From an uncultured delta proteobacterium (lineage in GTDB: Bacteria; Myxococcota_A; Polyangia; Polyangiales; Polyangiaceae): 64,000 nucleotides of DNA. The translations under genes were made by a program, and so were the position numbers. Positions within the stretch are counted from its first letter, which is position 1; the number at the start of each line of letters is the position of its first letter. The notes beneath the pieces were generated by a model. The model had not been told where the DNA came from. It saw only the letters and a program-made list of their open reading frames with translations, and made no database searches. The stretch lies in assembly GCA_963782055.1 (NCBI GenBank), contig CAWAIF010000003.1, positions 4,256,001 to 4,320,000 on the forward strand, given 5' to 3'. Positions 5,146-15,980 of this stretch are shown in pieces.

Positions 5146-7137
5146 TCAATGCTGGGCGATGCGCTGATCGCAGGGCTTGGCGTTCTCGTCCTGACCCCGG
5201 CCGGGGATGCGAGTGGGATCCTCGTTCATCGCGCGGCCCGCCCGCTCGATCTTGTTGACGATGAGCCGGTCCAGGTTGCCGGAGGTGTAGTCGCTCTGCG
5301 TACCCCCACAGCTCGCGACCGGGTCGCCGCCACCCGTCGACTGGGGGCCAGCCCCGCCGCGCAGGACGAACATCTCGGTGCCCCCGGTGTACTGCGCGAT
5401 CTGCCGGAAGACGACCTGGCCGAGCTCGTCCATGCCGGAGGCCGCGATGGTGTAGACCTGCACGCCGGCGTGCGCGGCGGCCTGCGCGTCACGCGCGTAG
5501 CCAGGCTCGTCCTTGTAGTCGAGGTGCGGCGGCGCATCACCGATGACGAAGAGCAGACGCGCGCTCGCATCCGGACGCCACGCGAGGCCGGTGAGCGCGT
5601 CGTGGATGCCGCGGTTGACGTCCTCCGGCATGTCGCCGCCGCCGCCGGCCGAGAGCGCCGACACGATGCCGGTGAAGCGCTGCACATCGCCGGTCATGCC
5701 GAAGACGCGCGTGACGTAGGCGTCGCTGCGATCGCGGTACTCCACGAGCCCCACGTGCACGCCGGTGAGCGAGGCGGCCACGCGGCGCAGCGTCGCCTGC
5801 ACGGCCGTGATCTCCTCGCCCATCGATCCCGTCGTATCCAGCGCGAAGGCCACGTCCACGCTGGCGCCGCCGAGATCGCGCGGCTCCTTGCCGTCGAGCA
5901 GCACGACGCCGTCCGCCGTGGCGGCGGAGAACTGCGCGCTCGCCACATTGCCGCCGCATCGCGCGGTGGCAGCGAGCTTGTCGCCGCGCAGGCCCTCGGC
6001 GCGCGGAAAGAGGAGGGCGCGCCCGCTCGCCATGGTCTTGAGCGTGGTGGTCTTGCCCGACGCGTCCGCCACCGTGACCGCGCAGTTGGGAATGGGCTTC
6101 CCCTTCACGTCGCGCACCACGAGGAACTGCCGGTGCGTCACGTCGAGCGGCGTGATGCCGAGACCGCGGGAGGAGGCCAGCAGCTTCTGGAACTCGCTGT
6201 AGTTGGCGTTGTCGTCCCACTCGCCGGCGCGTACCGGACCGCTGGCGAAGTGCCCGCGAGGCCCGCCGCCTGACCGGCCGAAGCCGGTGGCGGCCGCGCC
6301 CGCGCCGTGGCCGATGGTGCCCACGGCGCCCAGCCCGATGCCCTCTCCGTGCCCGCCGCCGCCCTCGCCCGTCGCGCCGGCGACGCCCAGGCTGCCCGAC
6401 CCGAACGCGTCGGCCGCGCTGCTGCCCGACAGCAATCCCTTCGCGGCCTTCTTGGCGCCGTCTCCGTCACCGAGTGGGTCTGCCTTCACCCCGGTCGCGC
6501 CGATGGCCGAGACCAGGCCGATCACGCCCCACTCCGACGCTTCGCGATGACCCACCCCGCGCTCCGTCCTGGCGTCGGCCACTGCGTCCGCGTGGCGATG
6601 TCCCGCGGCGGAGGGGTCCACGCCTCCTTCCTCACCCTTCGCGCGAGCGCCGGTGCTCGTGGCCTCCCCGGCCACCGCCGACGTGGACCTGCGCGCGGAC
6701 GCCGCGGCGCCGTCGCCGTCGATCGCGCCGGAGCGACCACCCTCGTCCGCGCGGGAGGCGACCAGGTAGTGCCGCATCAGCTCCAGGTGGTCCCGCGCCT
6801 CCGCCGACTCGTCCCGCGGCGCCTGGCTGGCCGCGACCAGCGCACCCGTGTGCGCGGCGAGCGACGCGGTGATCAGCCCGAGCAGCGGGAGCACATCCAC
6901 GATGCGCCCCGCCCGCGCGAAGCCCTCCGCCCGGCACACCGCCAGCGTGAGGTCCCCGCTCCGTACGACCCCCTGCCCTGCCCCCTCGAATCCCGCGGGA
7001 ACGCACACCACCCCCCGCTCGTCCACCACGCGATCCCCGCCCGCGCCAGCCAGCACGTCACCCAGCCGCACCGGCGTGCGCAGGCGTCCGGAGAAGAGCA
7101 CCGAGTCGTTCCACGTCGCGACCACGTCAACCAGCAT
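5146..7137 (-). CDS. vWA-domain protein with an N-terminal AgmX/GltG-like glycine-rich region
   Basis: MIDAS motif DTTGSM, plus GGGDMPED and IGDAPPH. One TM segment and GEGGGGHGEGIGLGAVGTIGHG. Confidence 0.8.
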   Translation of the reverse strand: MLVDVVATWNDSVLFSGRLRTPVRLGDVLAGAGGDRVVDERGVVCVPAGFEGAGQGVVRSGDLTLAVCRAEGFARAGRIVDVLPLLGLITASLAAHTGALVAASQAPRDESAEARDHLELMRHYLVASRADEGGRSGAIDGDGAAASARRSTSAVAGEATSTGARAKGEEGGVDPSAAGHRHADAVADARTERGVGHREASEWGVIGLVSAIGATGVKADPLGDGDGAKKAAKGLLSGSSAADAFGSGSLGVAGATGEGGGGHGEGIGLGAVGTIGHGAGAAATGFGRSGGGPRGHFASGPVRAGEWDDNANYSEFQKLLASSRGLGITPLDVTHRQFLVVRDVKGKPIPNCAVTVADASGKTTTLKTMASGRALLFPRAEGLRGDKLAATARCGGNVASAQFSAATADGVVLLDGKEPRDLGGASVDVAFALDTTGSMGEEITAVQATLRRVAASLTGVHVGLVEYRDRSDAYVTRVFGMTGDVQRFTGIVSALSAGGGGDMPEDVNRGIHDALTGLAWRPDASARLLFVIGDAPPHLDYKDEPGYARDAQAAAHAGVQVYTIAASGMDELGQVVFRQIAQYTGGTEMFVLRGGAGPQSTGGGDPVASCGGTQSDYTSGNLDRLIVNKIERAGRAMNEDPTRIPGRGQDENAKPCDQRIAQH

Positions 7138-7178: not shown

Positions 7179-8162
7179 TCAGGACATGAAGATCCCCGCC
7201 ACCGCGTCCCGCGCGGCGGCGAAGCGCTCCTCCCAGGTGCCACGCACCACCAGCACCTGCCGCCCGCGCGCCGCGAGCTCCGCGAGGCCCCGCGCGTGGA
7301 ACTCCGCGCGGTCGGCCGGACGGTAGCGCACCGGGTCGGGGACGAAGGGCACGTCCACGTCGGGCACGATCGTCAGATCATAGCGGAGCGCGTCCGCCTC
7401 CTCGCGCACCCAGGCCGGGCACGACCCGAACAGCAGCTCCGACCACATCACGGTGGCCAGCACGTCGGTGTCGCAGACCAGCACCCGGTTCGCGAGGCGC
7501 GCCAGCGCCTCCTCCGACGCGAGCTGCCCCCGCGCGATGCGCTCCATGTCTTCCGCCTCCATAGCCCCGCCGCGTGGCTCCAGCAACGTGCGCGCGTACT
7601 CCGGCACCGCCACCGTGCCCAGCTCCTCCGCCAGCCGGCGCGCCAGCGTCGTCTTGCCCGTCGACTCCGCGCCGAACACGCACACCCGCTTGACGAAATA
7701 CGGCCGCACGCACCCCGGCAGGAACCGCCAGTGCGTCCACGGGTCCTGACGGATCGCCGTCGCGCTCACGGGCACCACCTCTCGCGCGACGTCGACCGGC
7801 ACCCACTCCGCCCCGAGCTCCGCCGCCAGCCGCTCCCCGTACGGCTCCGACGCGAACACGACGTCCGGCGGCGCGGGCAGCACCCGCAGCAGGCTCTCCC
7901 GCCAGATCTCCCAGAAGCGCGGGTGCTCGTGCGGCTCCTGCGGGTTCTCGTCGGTGAGGTGCACCACGCGCGCGTCGGGGAACAGCTCGCGCATCCACCC
8001 GAAGCGCAGCGCCCCCGGGATGGGCTCCCGCGCGAGCGTCCCCACCACCACCGTGAGGTCGTCGACGTACGCCCGCGCGAAGTCCACCAGGTGCACGTGC
8101 CCCGCGTGCGGCGGCATGAACTTGCCGAGCACCATCCCGCGACCGCGCCGGCGCCCGCTCAT
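7179..8162 (-). CDS. nadR: NadR-type bifunctional NMN adenylyltransferase / ribosylnicotinamide kinase (no HTH)
   Basis: GKFMPPHAGH (HxGH), VSATAIR, Walker A GAESTGKTT, VPEYAR, CDTD. The start codon overlaps the upstream stop (ATGA). Confidence 0.85.
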   Translation of the reverse strand: MSGRRRGRGMVLGKFMPPHAGHVHLVDFARAYVDDLTVVVGTLAREPIPGALRFGWMRELFPDARVVHLTDENPQEPHEHPRFWEIWRESLLRVLPAPPDVVFASEPYGERLAAELGAEWVPVDVAREVVPVSATAIRQDPWTHWRFLPGCVRPYFVKRVCVFGAESTGKTTLARRLAEELGTVAVPEYARTLLEPRGGAMEAEDMERIARGQLASEEALARLANRVLVCDTDVLATVMWSELLFGSCPAWVREEADALRYDLTIVPDVDVPFVPDPVRYRPADRAEFHARGLAELAARGRQVLVVRGTWEERFAAARDAVAGIFMS

Positions 8163-11026
8163 GCGGCCCCCAGCGCGCGGCGCACGTAGAGCCGCAGCAG
8201 CTCCGGCGACGCCTCCGGACACACGATGCCGCTGCCGGCCAGCGCGGCGATGGCGCGCTCCGTCCCGAACGTCGCGCCCGTCGCCTGGAACAGGTCCACC
8301 GTGCGGTAGCGCTCGGGACGCGCCCCCGAGAGCGCGCGGCCCAGCGCCACGAACGCCGCGGCGTCCTCCTCGGCCTCGCCGCGCCGCAGCGCCGCCACCC
8401 GCGCGCGCCACGCCGCTTCCCCCACCGCGCGGGCGGGCGCGCCCTCCGCCGCCATCGCCGCGAGCAGCGCGTCGAGCGTCGCCCCGTGAGGGCTCGCCAC
8501 GTGCAGCGCGCACGTCCCCGCCGGCGGCGCCGCGACCACGTGCGCCACCGCGGCCGCGGCGAAGTCCACCGGCGTCACGTCGAAGCGCAGCCCCGCGCGC
8601 AGCGCCGCCGCCGGCACGCACCCCGCGCGCGCGGTGCCCCGCACGAACATCCCGAGCAGGTCTCGCGCCGGCGCGTGACCCGTGCGCGAGTCCCCGGTCA
8701 CCAGCCCGAGGCGATGCACCACGACCGGGCCCAGCCGCGCCCCCGCCGCGCGCGCGACCTCCTCCGCCCCCCACTTGCTCTGGGCGTAGCCGCCGTGCAC
8801 CGCGCGCGCCTCGCGCAGGTCGTCGTCCTCCACGTGCGCGCCGCGCGGACAATCGCTCGCCACGAACACCGAGAGCGTCGAGACGTGGTGCAGGCGCTTC
8901 GGCCGGCCCTCAGCGAGCAGCCGCGCCACCTCCGCCGTGCCGCCCACGTTCGCCGCGCGCAGGCGCTCGTACGGCCACACGAGGTGCACCACCGCGCCGG
9001 CGTGCACGATGGCGTCCACCTCGCGCGCCGCCGCCGACCACTCCGCCTCGCGCAGCCCGAGTCGCGGGCGCTCCAGGTCCCCGACCAGCACGCCCAGCCG
9101 CGCGCGCTGCTCCGCCCCCGGCGTCATGCCGTGCGCGGCCATCGCGGCGAGCACCCGGTCGCGCGCGTGCGACGCGTCGCGCCCGCGCGCCAGGCAGCGC
9201 ACCCGCGCGCCCGTCCGGTCGAGGAGCGTGGCCACCAGCCGCGCGCCGAAGAAGCCCGTCGCGCCCGTCACCAGCACCGTGCCCGGCGCGCCCGCCGTCG
9301 CCGCGCGGAACGCGCCCGTGCGAAGAGGCCCCATCGCCCGCGCCGCGTCGCGCCGCAGCTCCTGCGCGCCGCGCGCGTCGTCCGATCGCGCGCGCAGCAT
9401 CGCGCGCGCCGTGCGCCCCTCGACGATGGCGGGCGGCGAGACGATCAGACCTCGCGCCTCCGCCGCCGCGGCGAGCTCCAGCACCGCCATCGAGTCGGCG
9501 CCCAGGGCGAAGAAGTCCGCCTCCGGGTCCACCGCCGCGAGGCGCAGCACCTCGGCGATCGCCGCGCACAGCGCGACCTCCGCGGGATCCCGCGGCGTCG
9601 TGGTCGCCGGCAGCGCTTCGCCCGCCGCCGGCCGCAGGTCCACCAGACGCGGCAGGTCCACCTTCCCCGCCGGGGTGCGCGGCAGCGCCTCGCACGCCAC
9701 CCACCGCGCCGGCACCATCCACGCCGGCAGCGTCGCGCCGAGGTGCTCGCGCAGCGCCTCCGCGGGCGCCTCGCCCGCGACGAAGGCGGTGAGCACCCGC
9801 CCCTCGGGCACCACCGCGCACTCCCGCACCGCGGGGTGCTCCAGCAGCTTCGCCTCGATCTCCTCCGGCTCCACCCGCCGGCCGGCGAGCTTCACCTGCC
9901 GGTCCAGCCGCCCGAGAAACACCGGCCCCGCCGCCCCGCGCCGCACCCGGTCGCCGGTGCGGTACCAGCGCTCGCCCTCGCGCACGACGAAGCGCCCGGC
10001 GGTGAGCTCCGGGCGCAGCAGGTAGCCGCGCGCCAGACCGGGTCCGGCAATCCACAGCTCGCCCTCCTCCCCCTCCGCGACCTCCCGCAGCGCGCGGTCG
10101 ACCACCTCGAGGCGCGCGCCGCCGATCGCCTCCCCCAGCCGCGGCTCGTTCCAGGTCGTGTCGCACACGCACCCGCTGGCGCAGATGGTCGCCTCCGTGG
10201 GCCCGTAGACGTTGACCACGCGCACCCGCGCGGCGAGCCGGCGCACCGCGTCCGGCGGACACACCTCGCCCCCCACCACGATCGACCGCAGCCCCGGCGG
10301 AAGCGCGCACCGCGCAAGCAGCGCCGCCACCGCCGGCGGCAGATCGGCGTGAGTGACGCCCAGCTCCCCCATCCGCCGCGCGAGCGCCGCGGGCGCCAGC
10401 TCGCCCGCCCCCCCGTCGATCACCAGCGTGCCGCCCGCGAGCAGCACCGTCCCCACGTCGGAGATGGAGGCGTCGAAGCCGGGCGAGAGCACCCAGAGCG
10501 CCCGCGTCGAGGCGTCGACGCCGAAGAGGCGCACCTGATCGTCGAGCACCCCGAGCAGGCCCCGATGCTCCACCAGCACCCCCTTCGGCGCGCCGCTCGT
10601 TCCGGAGGTGTAGACCACGTAGGCGAGGTCGCCGTCCGCCCCCACCTCGTTGCCCGCCGCCTCGTGCGGCGCCCCGTCCGGACCCGCCGCGCCACGCATG
10701 CGCATCCACGCCGCGTCGATGACCGCGCCCGCCCGCGCGTCCTGCAGCATCCAGCGCGCCCGCGCCTCCGGCAGCGCACAGTCCACCGGCAAGAACGCGG
10801 CGCGCGCGTACCAGGCGCCGAGCATGGCCGCCACCAGGTCCGCCGAGCGCGGCAGTCGCAGCGCCACCACGTCCTCTCTCCCCGCGCCGACCGCGCGCAG
10901 GCCCACCGCCACCGCGAGCGCGCGCCGCCGCAGCTCGGCGTAGCTCACCCGCACGCCGTCCTGCTCCACGGCCGCGAGCGCGCCGCGCTCCCGCGCCACG
11001 GCCTCGAAGCGCGCGACGAAGGTCAC
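8159..11026 (-). CDS. Single-module NRPS-like protein (adenylation - thiolation - thioester reductase)
   Basis: A domain: YTSGTSGAPKG, FDAS, NVYGPTE, YRTGD, GKVD. T domain: DFFALGADS. R domain: TGATGFFG, YAQSK. GTG start at 11026 overlaps the upstream TGA. Confidence 0.92.
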   Translation of the reverse strand: MTFVARFEAVARERGALAAVEQDGVRVSYAELRRRALAVAVGLRAVGAGREDVVALRLPRSADLVAAMLGAWYARAAFLPVDCALPEARARWMLQDARAGAVIDAAWMRMRGAAGPDGAPHEAAGNEVGADGDLAYVVYTSGTSGAPKGVLVEHRGLLGVLDDQVRLFGVDASTRALWVLSPGFDASISDVGTVLLAGGTLVIDGGAGELAPAALARRMGELGVTHADLPPAVAALLARCALPPGLRSIVVGGEVCPPDAVRRLAARVRVVNVYGPTEATICASGCVCDTTWNEPRLGEAIGGARLEVVDRALREVAEGEEGELWIAGPGLARGYLLRPELTAGRFVVREGERWYRTGDRVRRGAAGPVFLGRLDRQVKLAGRRVEPEEIEAKLLEHPAVRECAVVPEGRVLTAFVAGEAPAEALREHLGATLPAWMVPARWVACEALPRTPAGKVDLPRLVDLRPAAGEALPATTTPRDPAEVALCAAIAEVLRLAAVDPEADFFALGADSMAVLELAAAAEARGLIVSPPAIVEGRTARAMLRARSDDARGAQELRRDAARAMGPLRTGAFRAATAGAPGTVLVTGATGFFGARLVATLLDRTGARVRCLARGRDASHARDRVLAAMAAHGMTPGAEQRARLGVLVGDLERPRLGLREAEWSAAAREVDAIVHAGAVVHLVWPYERLRAANVGGTAEVARLLAEGRPKRLHHVSTLSVFVASDCPRGAHVEDDDLREARAVHGGYAQSKWGAEEVARAAGARLGPVVVHRLGLVTGDSRTGHAPARDLLGMFVRGTARAGCVPAAALRAGLRFDVTPVDFAAAAVAHVVAAPPAGTCALHVASPHGATLDALLAAMAAEGAPARAVGEAAWRARVAALRRGEAEEDAAAFVALGRALSGARPERYRTVDLFQATGATFGTERAIAALAGSGIVCPEASPELLRLYVRRALGAA

Positions 11027-11817
11027 CGCGGCACCTCGTAGTCCTCCAGCGTGGAGCCGCGCGAGCGGTTGTCCTCGTCCGGCGCGCCCAGGCCCGCGGC
11101 GTGATCCCCCAGGTGGACCACGCGCACGTCGATCGAGAAGCGCGTCCGCCCGCTGTCGTGGGCGCGCGTGGCGTGCAGATGCGCGGCGGAGAAGAGCACC
11201 AGCTCCCCCGCGCTTGCGGCGATGGGCATCCCCTCGTCGGGCGGCGACCCGAGCAGCCGCGGGTAGGGCGCGTCCGGAGCGGGCCGCGGGTTCTGGAAGC
11301 CCACACCGGCGCGCCACGCCGCGTAGTCGAAGGACGCCGAGTCGTTGGGCACCGCGCACCCGAAGGCGCCCGTGTGGATCACGAACGTCTCCTCCGCCCG
11401 CGCGTCGAGGAGCGGCGTCCACACGTTGATCTGCGCGCGCGGGTTGGCGTACCAGGTGTCGCGGTGCGCGTGGTAGGCCGGCGCCGCGGCCGCCACGCGA
11501 TGCCCGCCGCTCGGCACGACGCGCAGGCGCGGCGTGTCCACCGCGTGCTCCGCCGGGTCGATCCCGGCGGCCACCAGCGCCGCACGCACCGCCTCGCGCA
11601 CCTGCGCGTCCGCCGCGATCTCCCCCCGCAGCGCGGTGACGCGCTCGAACAGCGCGGCAGGCGAGAGGCGCTCGTGCACCGTCGAGAGCGGCAGCGCCCC
11701 GGAGAAGGCGCGCTCCGCCCGCGCCACCAGCAGCTCCGCGAGCGCCCGGCTCTGCGCCGACGCCGCGACGCGCACCACCTCCCCGCGGTAGAGCGCTCGC
11801 CGCCGCTCGGCGCTCAC
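11023..11817 (-). CDS. Putative Fe(II)/2-oxoglutarate-type oxygenase (PhyH-like)
   Basis: HRD..INVWTPL..GELVLFSAAHLH..RFSIDVR gives an HxD...H triad plus a downstream Arg. GTGA overlap with the upstream gene. Confidence 0.65.
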   Translation of the reverse strand: MSAERRRALYRGEVVRVAASAQSRALAELLVARAERAFSGALPLSTVHERLSPAALFERVTALRGEIAADAQVREAVRAALVAAGIDPAEHAVDTPRLRVVPSGGHRVAAAAPAYHAHRDTWYANPRAQINVWTPLLDARAEETFVIHTGAFGCAVPNDSASFDYAAWRAGVGFQNPRPAPDAPYPRLLGSPPDEGMPIAASAGELVLFSAAHLHATRAHDSGRTRFSIDVRVVHLGDHAAGLGAPDEDNRSRGSTLEDYEVPR

Positions 11818-12578
11818 GACGGCCTCCGCGCCAGCGCGATGCACCGCTCGCTCTCCAGCGTCAGCGGCTCGCACCGCAGGCTCCCGGCGAGCTCCACCTC
11901 CCCGAACCCCGCCTCCTCCAGCAGCCGCACGATCTCGTGCGGGGCGTAGAGCCGGGTGGAGCCGCGCCGCGCGATCCGCTCGCCCGAGGGCATCTCGTAG
12001 GTCCAGGTCTGGTCCAGCGTGCCGCGCCGCAGGTCGAGCGAGGACTCGCGCACCACCCGCACCTCCCCCGCAGGCACGACGTGGCGCGAGATCATCACCG
12101 GCGCGAAGCGCGCGAGCACGCCGGGCACGTTGGGGTAGTCCAGCGCGAAGCAGCCGCCGGGGCGCAGCGAGTCGTGCGCGGCCCGCAGCATCGCCACGTT
12201 ACGCGCGTCGCTCTCGGCGTGGCCGAAGCTCGTCGCCCAGTTGAAGGCGCCGTCGCAGGGCTCGGGCGCCACGAAGCGCTCGGCGTCGCCGTGGGCGATC
12301 GCGCAGCGGACCCCCGCGTCCCCCGCCGCCGCGCGCGCCCGCCGCACGTACTCCGCCGACTGGTCCACGCCCACGACGAAGACGCCTCGCCGCGCGAGCG
12401 GCACCGCCAGCCGCCCGACGCCGCAGCCCTGATCGAGCACGCGCGAGCCCGCGCCCGCGCCGAGCACCCCCACCAGGAAGGCGACCGTCGCGTCCACCGT
12501 CTCGGCGTGGAGCGTCTCCAGGACCACGTCGGCGAACACGTCGTCGTAGAACGCCGGCCACCAGTCCCGCGCGTTCAC
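11814..12578 (-). CDS. Class I SAM-dependent methyltransferase
   Basis: VLDQGCGVGR, GVDQS and LRPGG motifs. GTGA overlap with the upstream gene. Confidence 0.88.
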   Translation of the reverse strand: MNARDWWPAFYDDVFADVVLETLHAETVDATVAFLVGVLGAGAGSRVLDQGCGVGRLAVPLARRGVFVVGVDQSAEYVRRARAAAGDAGVRCAIAHGDAERFVAPEPCDGAFNWATSFGHAESDARNVAMLRAAHDSLRPGGCFALDYPNVPGVLARFAPVMISRHVVPAGEVRVVRESSLDLRRGTLDQTWTYEMPSGERIARRGSTRLYAPHEIVRLLEEAGFGEVELAGSLRCEPLTLESERCIALARRPS

Positions 12579-14470
12579 GAGGCCCCCAGGCGGTAGCGCG
12601 CCTCGAGGAGGCTCGCCGAGAGCACCATCATCAGCGCGGGGTCCCACGCGTGCCGCTCGGCGGGCGAGAGCGCGTCCAGCCCCTCGAGCCGACGCACGAC
12701 GGCCGCCCTGTCGAACGCGGGCGGCAGCGAGGGTCCTCGCAGCACGTCGTCGGCCAGCGCGCGGGCGGCCGAGCCGGCGCGCCAGAGCGGGGGCGCCATG
12801 AAGGGGTGCTTGCGCCGGCGCACCACCGCCTCGGGCAGCAGCGGCGCCATCGCCTCGCGCAGCACGTGCTTCTCCACCTCCCCGGCGATCTTCACCTCGG
12901 TGGGGAGCGTCCGCACGAAGGCGAACAGCTCGTGGTCGAGCATGGGGAGGCGCCCCTCCACCGAGTGCGCCATCTCCATTCCATCCCCCAGCGTCCGGAG
13001 GATGTAGCCGGCGAGGGCGAGCTTGGTCCACGTGTACGCGGCCTGGTCGACCCGGTCCCGCCCCGCGAGCTGCGCCGGATCGAAGGACGCGACCATCTGC
13101 GCGTACGGGTCCCCCGCCGCGTGGGCGCGCAGGAACCCGGGCGCCGCCAGCGACGTCACCCGCCTGCCCAGCGCCGCCTTCGCCTCCATCCAGCTCGGCA
13201 CGAAGCCGAGGGCGGAGCGCACCGCGTCCAGCGGAAGCCCCTCGCCCACCGGCATCATGATCCCCGCCGACGCGCCGTTCGCCGCGGCGAGGCGCGCCAC
13301 GCGATCGGCCCCCGCCCCGGCGGCGAGCAGGCCGTCGCGCCGGAAGTGCGGGTAGCCAGCGAGGACCTCGTCGGCGCCCTCCCCCGTCATCACCACACGA
13401 AAGCCCGCGTCGCGCACCGCGCGGCTGAGCAGGAACTTCGCGGCGGCGTGGGCGTTGACCACCAGCCCCTCACCGTGGGCGATCGCGTCGGGCAGGGCGC
13501 GCGCCAGGTCCTGCTGCGACGCGCGCACGGTGATCAGGCGCGCCCCCAGGCGGTCCGCCGTCTGCTGCGCCAGGCCGAGCTCGTCGTAGTCGTCGTGGTC
13601 GAAGGAGACGGTGAAGCAGGTGATCGGCCCGCGCGCCCGCCGCGCGGCGAGCGCCGCCACCGCGCTGGAATCCAGGCCGCCGCTCAGCTGGAAGGCGACG
13701 GGCACGTCGGCGCGCATCCGCAGGCGCACCGCCTCGTCCAGCCGCTCGCCGAGCGCCGAGGCCACCTCCGGCGGCGCCAGCTTCTCCTCCGCGCGCGGGA
13801 CATCCAGGTCCCACCAGCGCGCGGTGCGCACGCCGGCGGAGGTGGCGGTGAGCATCGTCCCCGGCGGCACCTGCCGCACGCCCTCGAAGAGGGTGCGGTC
13901 TTCTTGCGTGTATTGTGCATGCATCGCGAAGGCGAGCGCGGCGGCGTCCCATCGCGCGGGCACGCCCATCGCGAAGAGGGCCTTGGCCTCCGAGGCGACG
14001 AGCAGCGCGCCCCCCGCCCGTGCGTACACCAGCGGCCGCACGCCGAAGCGGTCACGGGCGCAGAAGAGGCGGCGCGCGCGCGCGTCCCACAGCGCGAAGG
14101 CGAACTCCCCGCGCAGGTGCCGCAGGCAGTCCTCCCCGTGCTCCTCGTAGAGGTGCAGCAGGATCTCCGAGTCGCTCCGCGTCCGGAAGCGGTGGCCGCG
14201 GCGCTCCAGGTCTGCGCGGATGCGCGCGTCGTCGTAGAGCTCGCCGGTGACGACGGCGACGACCGCACCATCCTCGCTCGCCAGAGGCTGCGCGCCGCCG
14301 GCGGGGTCCACGATGGCGAGCCGCACGTGGCCGAGCGCCGCCTCCCCGCCCGGCGCCGTCCACACGCCACGCCCGTCCGGCCCGCGGTGGACGAGGGCCT
14401 CCAGGCCGCGCTCCACGCGCGCGGCGCACACCGGCGCCTCCGGCGAGAAGAGGGCGACGAGGCCGCACAT
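12575..14470 (-). CDS. asnB: Asparagine synthase (glutamine-hydrolysing)-like amidotransferase
   Basis: N-terminal MCG, HRGPD, RDRFGVRPL, LSGGLDSS, GEGADE, MAHSVEGRLP. Confidence 0.92.
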   Translation of the reverse strand: MCGLVALFSPEAPVCAARVERGLEALVHRGPDGRGVWTAPGGEAALGHVRLAIVDPAGGAQPLASEDGAVVAVVTGELYDDARIRADLERRGHRFRTRSDSEILLHLYEEHGEDCLRHLRGEFAFALWDARARRLFCARDRFGVRPLVYARAGGALLVASEAKALFAMGVPARWDAAALAFAMHAQYTQEDRTLFEGVRQVPPGTMLTATSAGVRTARWWDLDVPRAEEKLAPPEVASALGERLDEAVRLRMRADVPVAFQLSGGLDSSAVAALAARRARGPITCFTVSFDHDDYDELGLAQQTADRLGARLITVRASQQDLARALPDAIAHGEGLVVNAHAAAKFLLSRAVRDAGFRVVMTGEGADEVLAGYPHFRRDGLLAAGAGADRVARLAAANGASAGIMMPVGEGLPLDAVRSALGFVPSWMEAKAALGRRVTSLAAPGFLRAHAAGDPYAQMVASFDPAQLAGRDRVDQAAYTWTKLALAGYILRTLGDGMEMAHSVEGRLPMLDHELFAFVRTLPTEVKIAGEVEKHVLREAMAPLLPEAVVRRRKHPFMAPPLWRAGSAARALADDVLRGPSLPPAFDRAAVVRRLEGLDALSPAERHAWDPALMMVLSASLLEARYRLGAS

Positions 14471-14471
14471 C

Positions 14472-15401
14472 TCAGTCCGCGCGCTCCGGGCCGGCGTCGA
14501 TGCGAAGGAAGACCTTGCGCGCCTCGCTCGCGCGGGCGGCCGCGAAGGCGCGGCGATGATCGCCCAGCGCGAAGGTCTCGCCGAGCAGATCGGACACGTC
14601 GACGCGACCGGTGGCCAGCCAGGCCACCGCCTCCTCGAAGGAGCCGTAGCTCACCGCGCGCAGGACGAGGTCCTTGCGCACGGCGAGGCCCACGTCCAGC
14701 GGCACCGGCGTGTGCGAGCGGCTCTTGAGCACCAGCGTGCCGCCCGGACGCAGGGCGCGGAGCATCGCGTCCATCGCCCGCGCGTCGGCCACCGACTCCA
14801 CGACCCAGTCCAGGCCCGGCGGCAGCGGACGGGCCGGGTCGCATGCGGGCACGTCCCCGAACCCGGCGGCGGCGAGCACGCGCACGATCAAGGTGGGGAT
14901 ACGGCCGGTGCCCACCACCGCGCCCCGCCCGCCGAGGTCCAGGCCGGCGCGCAGGACGCCGAGCGCCGCGGCGAGCGGCTCGGTGTACGCGGCCAGGCGG
15001 AAGGGCAGCGCCGGGGGCACCAGCAGCACCGCGCGGGCGGGCACGCGCAGGGCGCCGGCGAAGGCGCCGTCGCGGTCCACGCCGAGCAGCGCCGGGGACG
15101 CGCACCGCTCCCCGCGCGTGCACTCCACGCACGCGCCGCACGGCACCGAGGGGACGACCGTCACGCGATCGCCCGGGCGCAGGGGCGCCGCCGCCGCGCC
15201 CACCTGGGTCACGGTGCCGGCGAGCTCGTGCCCCAGCACCACCGGGTCGGCCGACGGGAGCAGGCCGTCGGCGACGTAGAGATCGGTGCGACAGATGCCG
15301 GCCACCGCGACGTCGATCACGACGTCGTCGCTCGCGACCGGCGCGAGCGGCGGCACGGTGCGCAGCGACACCTCACCTGCCTGTTTGACGAGAGCGTGCA
15401 T
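14472..15401 (-). CDS. Zinc-binding (MDR family) alcohol dehydrogenase
   Basis: GICRTD, GHE and a structural-zinc motif CGACVECTRGERC. SD GGAGGAG at 15411-15417. Confidence 0.88.
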   Translation of the reverse strand: MHALVKQAGEVSLRTVPPLAPVASDDVVIDVAVAGICRTDLYVADGLLPSADPVVLGHELAGTVTQVGAAAAPLRPGDRVTVVPSVPCGACVECTRGERCASPALLGVDRDGAFAGALRVPARAVLLVPPALPFRLAAYTEPLAAALGVLRAGLDLGGRGAVVGTGRIPTLIVRVLAAAGFGDVPACDPARPLPPGLDWVVESVADARAMDAMLRALRPGGTLVLKSRSHTPVPLDVGLAVRKDLVLRAVSYGSFEEAVAWLATGRVDVSDLLGETFALGDHRRAFAAARASEARKVFLRIDAGPERAD

Positions 15402-15478
15402 GGGACCTTGCTCCTCCAGAAGCCCAGGATCGGGCCAGGCATTCCCGCCTGGGAAGGGACGGCTCGCCGATTCGGTAG

Positions 15479-15512
15479 ATAGAGTTATAATGACTCTTTA
15501 GGCCCACGCAAG
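15479..15512 (-). promoter_or_regulatory. Palindromic operator AGAGT-N7-ACTCT (NrtR-like GT-N7-AC box) overlapping a sigma70-like promoter
   Basis: AT-rich patch atAGAGTtataatgACTCTtt (15479-15499). The minus strand reads TTGCGT-N16-TATAAC, upstream of the dehydrogenase-to-nadR operon. Confidence 0.65.
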
Positions 15513-15542: not shown

Positions 15543-15980
15543 TCACCCGGTGGGCTCCACCTTCACGTTCACGTCCACGCCGGCGCGCACGCTCTGGGTC
15601 ACCACGCAGAAGTCCTCGAAGGTCCCGAGGCACTTGTGCAGCGCCGCGTCGTCGGCGGCGACGCCCGGGCGGATGACGACGTCGACCTTGCCCACGCGCA
15701 GCCGCTTCTCCTCGTTGCGCACCATCTCCACGTGCACGTCCGACTTCAGGTCGGTGAGCGTGACCCCGGCGCGCTTGAGGCAGAACAGGAGGCTCGCCGA
15801 CAGGCAGTCGCCGATCGCGGCCGCGAGCAGCCGCGCGGGGTTGGGGCCACGGTCCTGACCGAGGGGGGGCGGCTCGTCGAGGGTGAGCTCGGCGTAGGTG
15901 TCCTTGTCGAAGCGGACCCGAAACTCGAAGTCGTCGACCTGCTCGATGTGAAGGTCGAAGTGACCGGCGGGGGTTGTCAT
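15543..15980 (-). CDS. OsmC-family protein
   Basis: GPNPARLLAAAIGDCL and a second Cys in DFCVVTQSV. Confidence 0.85.
   Translation of the reverse strand: MTTPAGHFDLHIEQVDDFEFRVRFDKDTYAELTLDEPPPLGQDRGPNPARLLAAAIGDCLSASLLFCLKRAGVTLTDLKSDVHVEMVRNEEKRLRVGKVDVVIRPGVAADDAALHKCLGTFEDFCVVTQSVRAGVDVNVKVEPTG

Follow-up and report, generated by a model that had tools for sequence, protein, structure and literature searches.

A six-gene operon that joins NadR to five biosynthetic enzymes was found in a stretch of bacterial DNA of 64,000 nucleotides (G000:C3:4256001-4320000; the whole stretch is referred to as the window hereafter), which belongs to a genome of 7.58 Mb with a GC content of 72% and a completeness of 97% (G000). 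The five enzymes are a dehydrogenase, an AsnB-like amide synthetase, a methyltransferase, an oxygenase, and an adenylation-thiolation-reductase (A-T-R) enzyme that resembles a nonribosomal peptide synthetase (NRPS). The operon is real, it is undescribed in the literature that we found, and it is linked to nicotinamide adenine dinucleotide (NAD) on two separate genomic lines. One is that, among genomes with a closely related NadR, the dehydrogenase and the transporter PnuC exclude each other. The other is that an NrtR-type box lies upstream of the operon and recurs before genes of NAD metabolism. A link to NAD had been claimed in a first-pass annotation made from the sequence alone, and both lines support it. 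The gene set, its co-occurrence, the box with its regulon company, and the PnuC exclusion are direct observations. As for their meaning, we tentatively favor the reading that the pathway builds the substrate of NadR within the cell, and that this substrate would be a look-alike of nicotinamide riboside (NR) and not the riboside itself.

For the occurrence of PnuC, the genomes were classified as follows. In the sample of 401 genomes from the window's phylum, 42 had a NadR match, and 24 of these formed a NadR clade at E < 1e-70; dehydrogenase matches were found in 21 of the 401 genomes, in 17 of them at E < 1e-31. We looked for PnuC in 30 selected genomes, among them every one of the 24 in the NadR clade. 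Within the clade, 15 genomes carry the dehydrogenase without PnuC, 9 genomes from six genera carry PnuC without the dehydrogenase, and none carries both or neither, a split for which the E-value cuts were chosen after the data had been seen, many genomes are fragmented metagenome-assembled genomes (MAGs), kin are not independent, and no P value is given. In 8 of the 9 PnuC genomes, pnuC is located directly before nadR. An orthologue of the methyltransferase is absent from all 9, and three closely related ones (G050, G187 and G317) keep a lone oxygenase. PnuC was not found in G000, either by Pfam PF04973 or by tblastn, nor in any of the 16 pathway carriers of the phylum sample or the 4 carriers of a second, planctomycete sample. 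Because of this mutual exclusion, the five enzymes look like an in-house source of the substrate of NadR.

The second line is the box. NrtR recognizes a palindrome with a GT-N7-AC core, and ADP-ribose (adenosine diphosphate ribose) suppresses its binding to DNA, according to Rodionov 2008 (PMC2330246). The box in the window lies inside the region covered by the first-pass annotation, which did not mention it. Among 38 upstream regions, 11 have such a box within 200 bases of the dehydrogenase start, while 300 shuffles gave 0.44 on average and never more than 3. With a matrix made from the boxes of the other clusters, the window box is the top site of the whole genome (26.0 bits). With a second matrix, made from 12 non-cluster boxes, 8 of 43 operon starts reach the cut of 10 bits, against 0.13 in shuffles, a test that is not fully independent, the training sites having been chosen by a pattern drawn from the cluster boxes. 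Under this non-cluster matrix, the window box scores 9.2 bits, just below the 10-bit cut, and represents a variant subtype. The second matrix found a box in none of 15 pnuC and none of 72 nadR upstream regions.

The genomic company of the box points in the same direction. G000 has two nrtR genes, the second of them at C3:3688748-3689479, and nrtR was found in 4 of 5 other box-bearing carriers tested, inside nadD, nadE or pncB operons. In G081, G375 and G161, the same box occurs both before the cluster and before nrtR-pncA-nadD, pncB-nrtR and pncB-nadE-nrtR operons, and in one locus (L087) nrtR is the divergent neighbor of the dehydrogenase gene. In G000, a box of 17.0 bits is located 31 bases before an operon of pncB-like, pncA-like and nrtR genes. 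Other copies precede genes for ADP-ribosylglycohydrolase, NADAR, microbial PARG, Nudix and Sir2 proteins, and some precede unrelated genes, for example, purL. From these positions, we infer that NrtR controls the operon in some of its carriers.

The six genes are also conserved as a set. Minus-strand open reading frames (ORFs) fill 7179-15401 and are joined by four 4-bp overlaps and a single 1-bp gap (at 14471), which agrees with the one co-oriented unit described in the first-pass annotation, and the gene families named there agree with the domain profile matches. Besides the phylum sample, we used 201 genomes of the phylum of a Rhodopirellula MAG (the second sample) and a metagenome scan with 154 confirmed matches, the best 80 of which were analyzed as loci; many loci lacking the full gene set are short contigs. 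The complete set is present in 15 of the best 80 metagenome loci and in 5 of the 19 genome loci examined; with the window, this makes 21 loci, which fall into 17 clusters at 70% identity, with a median identity of 46% and six gene orders, including divergent ones. The earlier assignment of NadR to the unit was thus confirmed, nadR being syntenic with the other five genes in these loci. Where both genes of a pair are present, dehydrogenase and AsnB are adjacent in 37 of 37 loci, methyltransferase and oxygenase in 65 of 67, and A-T-R and NadR in 30 of 37. When an operon is split, the remaining pieces are present elsewhere in the same genome; G153 has the dehydrogenase only. The oxygenase was found in 27 of the 401 genomes; 18 of these matches belong to the cluster type, 5 are more remote (33-36% identity) and 4 are weak, and 4 of the 5 remote ones lie in sugar-nucleotide gene sets. 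The Rhodopirellula MAG has the same gene order as the window, with nadR interrupted by a contig end, and 4 of the 201 genomes of its phylum have a dehydrogenase orthologue, one of them with all six genes consecutively. Judged from protein sequences alone, named homologues exist in Archangium, Acanthopleuribacter, Nocardia, Ca. Eremiobacterota and others. The cultured bacteria with an orthologue of the oxygenase include Archangium violaceum (JRI60_07255), A. lipolyticum (WP_257458299) and Acanthopleuribacter pedis (WP_207862965). Among 105 loci, no seventh gene is conserved across lineages, and the loci show no recurrent exporter, no recurring ribosyl or phosphoribosyl transferase, no recurring bacillithiol genes, and no tailoring variation of the kind seen in secreted-product clusters. 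On phages and plasmids, only distant oxygenase homologues (23-39%) were found.

Table 1. The operon, its putative operator and the flanking genes in the window
Feature	Position	Strand	Domains and remarks
VWA-domain gene	5146-7137	-	41 bases downstream of nadR, same orientation
NadR without helix-turn-helix (HTH) domain, P0006, 327 aa	7179-8162	-	HxGH nucleotidyltransferase + P-loop kinase
Stand-alone A-T-R NRPS-like enzyme, P0005, 955 aa	8159-11026	-	AMP-binding + PP-binding + NAD_binding_4
Fe(II)/2-oxoglutarate oxygenase, P0004, PhyH-like fold, uncharacterized family, 264 aa	11023-11817	-	
Class I S-adenosylmethionine (SAM) methyltransferase, P0003, 254 aa	11814-12578	-	Methyltransf_25
AsnB-like glutamine-dependent amide synthetase, P0002, 631 aa	12575-14470	-	GATase_7 + Asn_synthase
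Zn-dependent dehydrogenase, P0001, 309 aa	14472-15401	-	ADH_N; threonine/polyol dehydrogenase branch
Putative NrtR-type operator	15478-15500		AT-rich 23-bp palindrome, GT-N7-AC core; 77 bases upstream of dehydrogenase start
OsmC-like gene	15543-15980	-	upstream of NrtR-type box

The features of the operon are listed in Table 1. Neither of the two flanking genes (OsmC-like and VWA-domain) recurs beside the other clusters in the loci compared, and a sigma-70 promoter scan found no promoter. We examined the sequence characteristics of the six proteins. P0001 is about 35 residues shorter than its solved relatives, and C37, H58, E59, E141, R167 and S227-R228 are invariant in 102 aligned homologues. 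P0002 scores 427 bits against TIGR01536 (cut-off, 267); since the N-terminal glutaminase Cys is kept, together with an intact PP-loop, a primary amide should be its product. The nearest solved relative of P0003 in a profile search is the amine N-methyltransferase NmbA (9RI2; E 4e-38, the next match being at 6e-24), which methylates an amino-acyl amine (PMC12719100). All 44 PDB matches of P0003 at E 1e-8 or better are labeled methyltransferases or hypothetical proteins. The candidate role of P0003 as an aminocarboxypropyl transferase acting on nicotinate, which would give an exact acyclic isostere of NR, was retained as no more than a sub-case, since its solved relatives are methyltransferases. 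The PhyH profile match of P0004 is weak (21.3 bits; cut-off, 22), and no solved close relative was found by sequence. Its predicted model (pLDDT, a model confidence score, of 96) resembles the PhyH-like PtlH (Z 15.5, root mean square deviation 3.8, 219 aligned residues), and H118-x-D120, H215 and R226 are invariant in 105 aligned of 120 listed homologues. The double-stranded beta-helix, the HxD...H triad and the 2-oxoglutarate-binding Arg of a PhyH-like Fe(II)/2-oxoglutarate oxygenase are thus all found in P0004.

P0005 consists of A, T and terminal R domains without a condensation (C) domain, and the carrier Ser and the YxxxK motif are kept; its best NCBIfam match is MxcG, at 480 bits against a cut-off of 2300. 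Most homologues have the ten-residue pocket code D-A-S-D-[IV]-G-[VC]-[VI]-C-K, in which D, A, S, D, G and C are constant in 41 of 41 aligned A domains. The Asp that binds the alpha-amino group is kept, and the floor of the pocket is constantly acidic, with Ser239, Asp278 and Gly301 in the GrsA numbering. We take this pocket to lie between the Tyr-type and the Glu/Gln/Lys-type pockets, and the residues suggest a substrate whose large side chain has a hydrogen-bond-donating or cationic end. P0006, the only NadR of G000, gives full-length matches to four solved NadRs (E 1e-36 to 8e-22), and its HAGH and Walker A motifs are intact. It falls below the curated cut-offs (TIGR01526, 292 bits against 341; NF005988, 129 bits against 201), and the TIGR01526 score lowers its strict family filing, not its likeness to NadR. 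K14, F15, H22, F103, S105, E217 and D262 of P0006 align with functional residues of the phage NadR Bas30_86 (PMC13464706), while D115 and the Y86/G89 loop residues of the latter differ. A PADLOC scan of the gene set gave only a generic methyltransferase-domain match (P0003) and no profile of an anti-phage system.

Based on family chemistry and genomic context, the reactions, the regulation in vivo, the structure of the product and its role may be outlined as follows. The A-T-R enzyme would activate a single alpha-amino acid, either non-standard or polar, and would reduce its carboxyl group to a primary alcohol, with or without the help of the dehydrogenase. The methyltransferase would methylate an amine, the oxygenase would hydroxylate the molecule, and the dehydrogenase/AsnB pair would install a primary carboxamide, by which nicotinamide is recognized. 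The kinase of NadR would then phosphorylate the alcohol, and its adenylyltransferase would add adenosine monophosphate (AMP). The expected product is an amino-alcohol-ADP conjugate, which would be NAD-shaped and would lack the N-glycosidic bond, the site of attack by NADases and ADP-ribosyltransferases. This conjugate would be made upon a rise of ADP-ribose, be retained in the cell, and either block enzymes that consume NAD or take the place of NAD in a form that cannot be cleaved. Two considerations connect the steps. One is that, with no ribosyl or phosphoribosyl transferase recurring in the loci and no close orthologue of the regulon's divergent PncB-like gene in other carriers, the phosphorylatable hydroxyl would have to come from the set itself. 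Another is that, since the NadR kinase needs a primary alcohol and a ribosyl transferase is missing, this alcohol would arise most simply by reduction of the carboxyl group by the A-T-R enzyme. The box with its regulon company, the PnuC exclusion, the position of the A-T-R gene next to nadR (30 of 37), the alpha-amino-binding Asp and the acidic pocket floor, the lack of a recurrent exporter, and the de novo NAD synthesis of G000 are counted in favor of the look-alike, and an uncleavable mimic fits ADP-ribose control and the company of ADP-ribose clean-up genes. It is possible, with more doubt, that the mimic is made when ADP-ribose signals an attack on NAD, that it counteracts NADases and ADP-ribosyltransferases within the cell or acts as a redox cofactor resistant to cleavage, and that relatives which lost the synthesis genes import the precursor by PnuC.

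Several observations weigh against the look-alike. The PnuC-linked NadRs are 56-62% identical to P0006, which makes the latter look ordinary, and they nest among the cluster NadRs (SH-aLRT 94) in a quick, unfinished tree with a weak backbone, which shows clustering and not direction. The PnuC of these genomes aligns with the riboside transporter 4QTN. With an ordinary NadR and a 4QTN-like PnuC, true NR is therefore the simplest substrate. About 70% of the operon starts have no box, and the pocket code of P0005 did not turn up in the literature searched, so that it points to no particular amino acid. One genome that is 99% complete (G025) has the five enzymes and no NadR. Finally, no nadA, nadB, nadC or 3-hydroxyanthranilate 3,4-dioxygenase (3-HAO) gene was found in three carriers, which are fragmented MAGs (G146, G141 and G301; 93%, 89% and 87% complete, respectively), and all 9 PnuC genomes have nadA, so that the presence of a de novo pathway says little against a second NAD supply.

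An alternative, which we regard as rather unlikely, is that the operon supplies true NAD by a novel biosynthetic route in place of the uptake of NR by PnuC. Here, the five enzymes would make or regenerate the pyridine carboxamide; for example, a ring derived from the A-T-R aldehyde would be methylated, the methyl group would be oxidized by the oxygenase and the dehydrogenase, and AsnB would amidate it. A nucleoside phosphorylase or phosphoribosyltransferase of the host would add the ribose, and NadR would complete NAD. The PnuC exclusion in 24 of 24 genomes, the lack of PnuC in the four planctomycete carriers, the ordinary NadR residues, the co-regulation with pncA, pncB, nadD and nadE, and the cohesion of the set even over split contigs, as in cofactor pathways, all agree with such a route. 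However, the set contains no ribose-attaching enzyme, an amine N-methyltransferase and one oxygenase do not suit any short conversion of one alpha-amino acid into a 3-substituted pyridine, and a free base would use PncA/PncB, which would make the NadR kinase needless. The first-pass annotation had also raised a route that would feed NAD synthesis, with a check for carriers without nadA and nadB. As a general replacement of de novo synthesis, this idea was weakened: G000 has nadA, nadB, nadC, nadD and nadE (nadD at 105 bits, just below the cut-off of 112), and de novo synthesis is indicated for 13 of 16 carriers, 11 by a nadA match (two of them partial) and 2 by 3-HAO plus nadC. What stands is that 3 of 16 carriers show none, which favors the route to true NAD, although at least two of these fragmented MAGs have PncB-like genes. 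A bypass of NadD and NadE by AsnB and NadR was rejected as unnecessary, with nadD-type matches in 34 of 34 genomes and nadE in most, and it leaves four genes unexplained.

The other explanations give NadR or the oxygenase a different place. The cluster could be an ordinary NRPS-like one for a small molecule (a carboxamide of the amino aldehyde, piperazine or pyrazine type) in which NadR merely tops up NAD(P) or hitch-hikes. G025, a locus with five genes and no NadR within it (L114), and the separation of nadR from the other pathway genes in G101, G396 and G301 are in line with this, while the retention of NadR across six gene orders, the want of an evident riboside source for a NadR without PnuC, the box before the dehydrogenase and before none of 72 nadR genes, and the lack of an exporter or of tailoring variation typical of secreted-product clusters make it improbable. 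Still less probable is the repair or recycling of damaged pyridine nucleotides, namely NAD, nicotinamide mononucleotide or NR oxidized, methylated or adducted in an attack on NAD, back to a NadR substrate. The ADP-ribose clean-up genes of the regulon would suit it, as would the persistence of the oxygenase beside NadR or PnuC-NadR in places that show none of the other genes (L093, L115, L126 and G050/G187/G317) and that of distant oxygenase relatives in sugar-nucleotide gene sets, which suggests a nucleotide-linked substrate; yet a methyltransferase and an A-T-R enzyme whose pocket takes an alpha-amino acid serve to build molecules and not to repair them. The target of a cluster's product is often marked by a duplicated housekeeping gene, and one lineage has a tandem NadD-like gene before nadR, both of which speak for NadR as a self-resistance gene against an antimetabolite that the other five enzymes make for export. 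The first-pass annotation had proposed this as well, and it found no support: P0006 is the sole NadR of its genome and no resistant duplicate, NadR would activate riboside analogues such as the antimetabolite, no exporter recurs, and control by a regulator of NAD stress better fits defense of the cell's own NAD pool. We consider self-resistance very unlikely.

Some further arrangements were found around the pathway genes. The tandem NadD-like two-domain protein occurs directly before nadR-methyltransferase-oxygenase in L055-L059, L061, L062, L078 and L094 (e.g., L094:6653-8056), and is limited to this one close group of 9 loci with a median identity of 79%. In L126:5857-11787 and in L127, nadR and the oxygenase are grouped with a methyltransferase from a different family, a TonB-dependent receptor and, on the other strand, pnuC, an uptake version that retains the oxygenase; L093 and L115 have only nadR and the oxygenase. 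Distant oxygenase relatives (30-36%) in L002, L048-L050 and L052 lie within a conserved sugar-nucleotide gene set, which by eye comprises a cytidylyltransferase, epimerases, a C-methyltransferase, and deacetylase-like and aminotransferase-like proteins. In L178:5953-11359 (also L181), nadR follows an operon with vWA-like and AMP-binding (CapK-like) proteins, distant from the other pathway genes. The oxygenase match of L283 (G545:C41) has one in-frame TAG, and the reductase domain of L046 matches weakly; these two copies may be decaying.

The regulon also contains genes of its own interest. G000 has two PncB-like ORFs, and PF04095 gives a true PncB of this type only about 20 bits. At C3:3688748-3691880 (L215, L217), the box is followed by a divergent PncB-like gene, a PncA-like gene (neither with a Pfam match), nrtR and an AAA ATPase gene; this PncB-like gene has no close orthologue in 54 other genomes, and it was set aside as the ribose-attaching enzyme, other carriers giving only partial matches of 30-39%. 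At C3:59547-61841 (L214, L216), the first nrtR precedes a PncB-like ORF whose catalytic motifs look degenerate by eye. The second-best site of G000 (C2:396453-399677, L268) lies before a three-gene operon of a kinase (with a J-domain in G000), a vWA-like and a PurA-like protein, which has a box in G375 as well (L266). In G081, boxes precede an SPFH plus NAD-kinase-like pair (L256:4070-6016) and a 2-oxoglutarate oxygenase plus DUF4291 pair (L259:2432-3653), whose position suggests that both pairs act in ADP-ribose stress. A box-like site of nadE in G000 (16.3 bits) was not counted because it overlaps the start codon.

Compared with known systems, the closest relatives of P0006 are found in pnuC-nadR operons. 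PnuC-NadR salvage III (phage NARP3, PMC13464706; L. lactis NadR, PMC7221760) has the same two-domain NadR without HTH and with its catalytic residues kept, and it restores NAD under NAD stress. In contrast, our system has no pnuC in the locus or in the 16 carriers tested, and five biosynthetic genes are found instead. With the NrtR regulons (PMC2330246), it shares the GT-N7-AC palindrome, a genomic nrtR, and the pncA, pncB, nadD, nadE and ADP-ribosylglycohydrolase targets; in Hahella and Streptococcus, NrtR is known to target pnuC-nadR, whereas no NRPS-like or AsnB gene is among the targets in the table passages of that paper that were covered, and its supplements may list more. A survey of viral NAD-ADP-ribose systems (PMC9503650) mentions NadR and NrtR and, in the portion consulted, no peptide synthetase or asparagine synthetase. 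NmbA, from bacillithiol N-methylation (PMC12719100), is near to P0003, whereas bacillithiol genes do not recur in the loci. In the literature searched, which leaves most subscription papers outside its coverage, there is neither an A-T-R cluster with NadR nor a description of this gene set, in keeping with the earlier statement that it is not a described cluster.

The A-T-R layout, the intact carrier Ser and the YxxxK reductase of P0005 are shared with stand-alone A-T-R reductases. These include the fungal glycine betaine reductase ATRR, the MxcG of myxochelin synthesis and the bacterial pyrazine-forming ATReds, and the logic of ATRR leads from an amino acid to an amino alcohol. Unlike their systems, ours has no condensation domain and no siderophore genes, and to our knowledge no A-T-R reductase has been coupled to a kinase-adenylyltransferase. 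The altemicidin (sbz) pathway uses NAD as a building block: the pyridoxal phosphate (PLP) enzyme SbzP joins NAD and SAM, and the pathway has a 2-oxoglutarate oxygenase, a methyltransferase and a carboxamide product. Our set is likewise NAD-linked and directed to a small molecule, with a 2-oxoglutarate oxygenase, a methyltransferase and a proposed carboxamide. However, no PLP family occurs among the six genes or as a shared seventh within the loci, to which the search for SbzP was limited, and NadR here would build a dinucleotide, whereas the altemicidin enzymes dismantle one.

The destruction of NAD is a central weapon of phage defense systems and interbacterial toxins, and the counters known to us only rebuild NAD from salvaged parts. 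For both leading readings, a cell-made, cleavage-proof look-alike of NAD and a route to NAD that starts with an NRPS-like reductase, we found no precedent. That one of these two applies is probable; if NadR is only an accessory, the system would be a new member of the NRPS-like kind of cluster. If the mimic is real, the precursor imported by PnuC would be a shared, vitamin-like compound, and a natural inhibitor of NAD-consuming enzymes or an orthogonal cofactor would be of interest for enzymology, drug discovery and cofactor engineering. By analogy, the system appears to work as PnuC-NadR salvage does, except that the substrate is synthesized and not imported, and it also resembles an A-T-R pathway to an amino alcohol; it is a member of neither described system.

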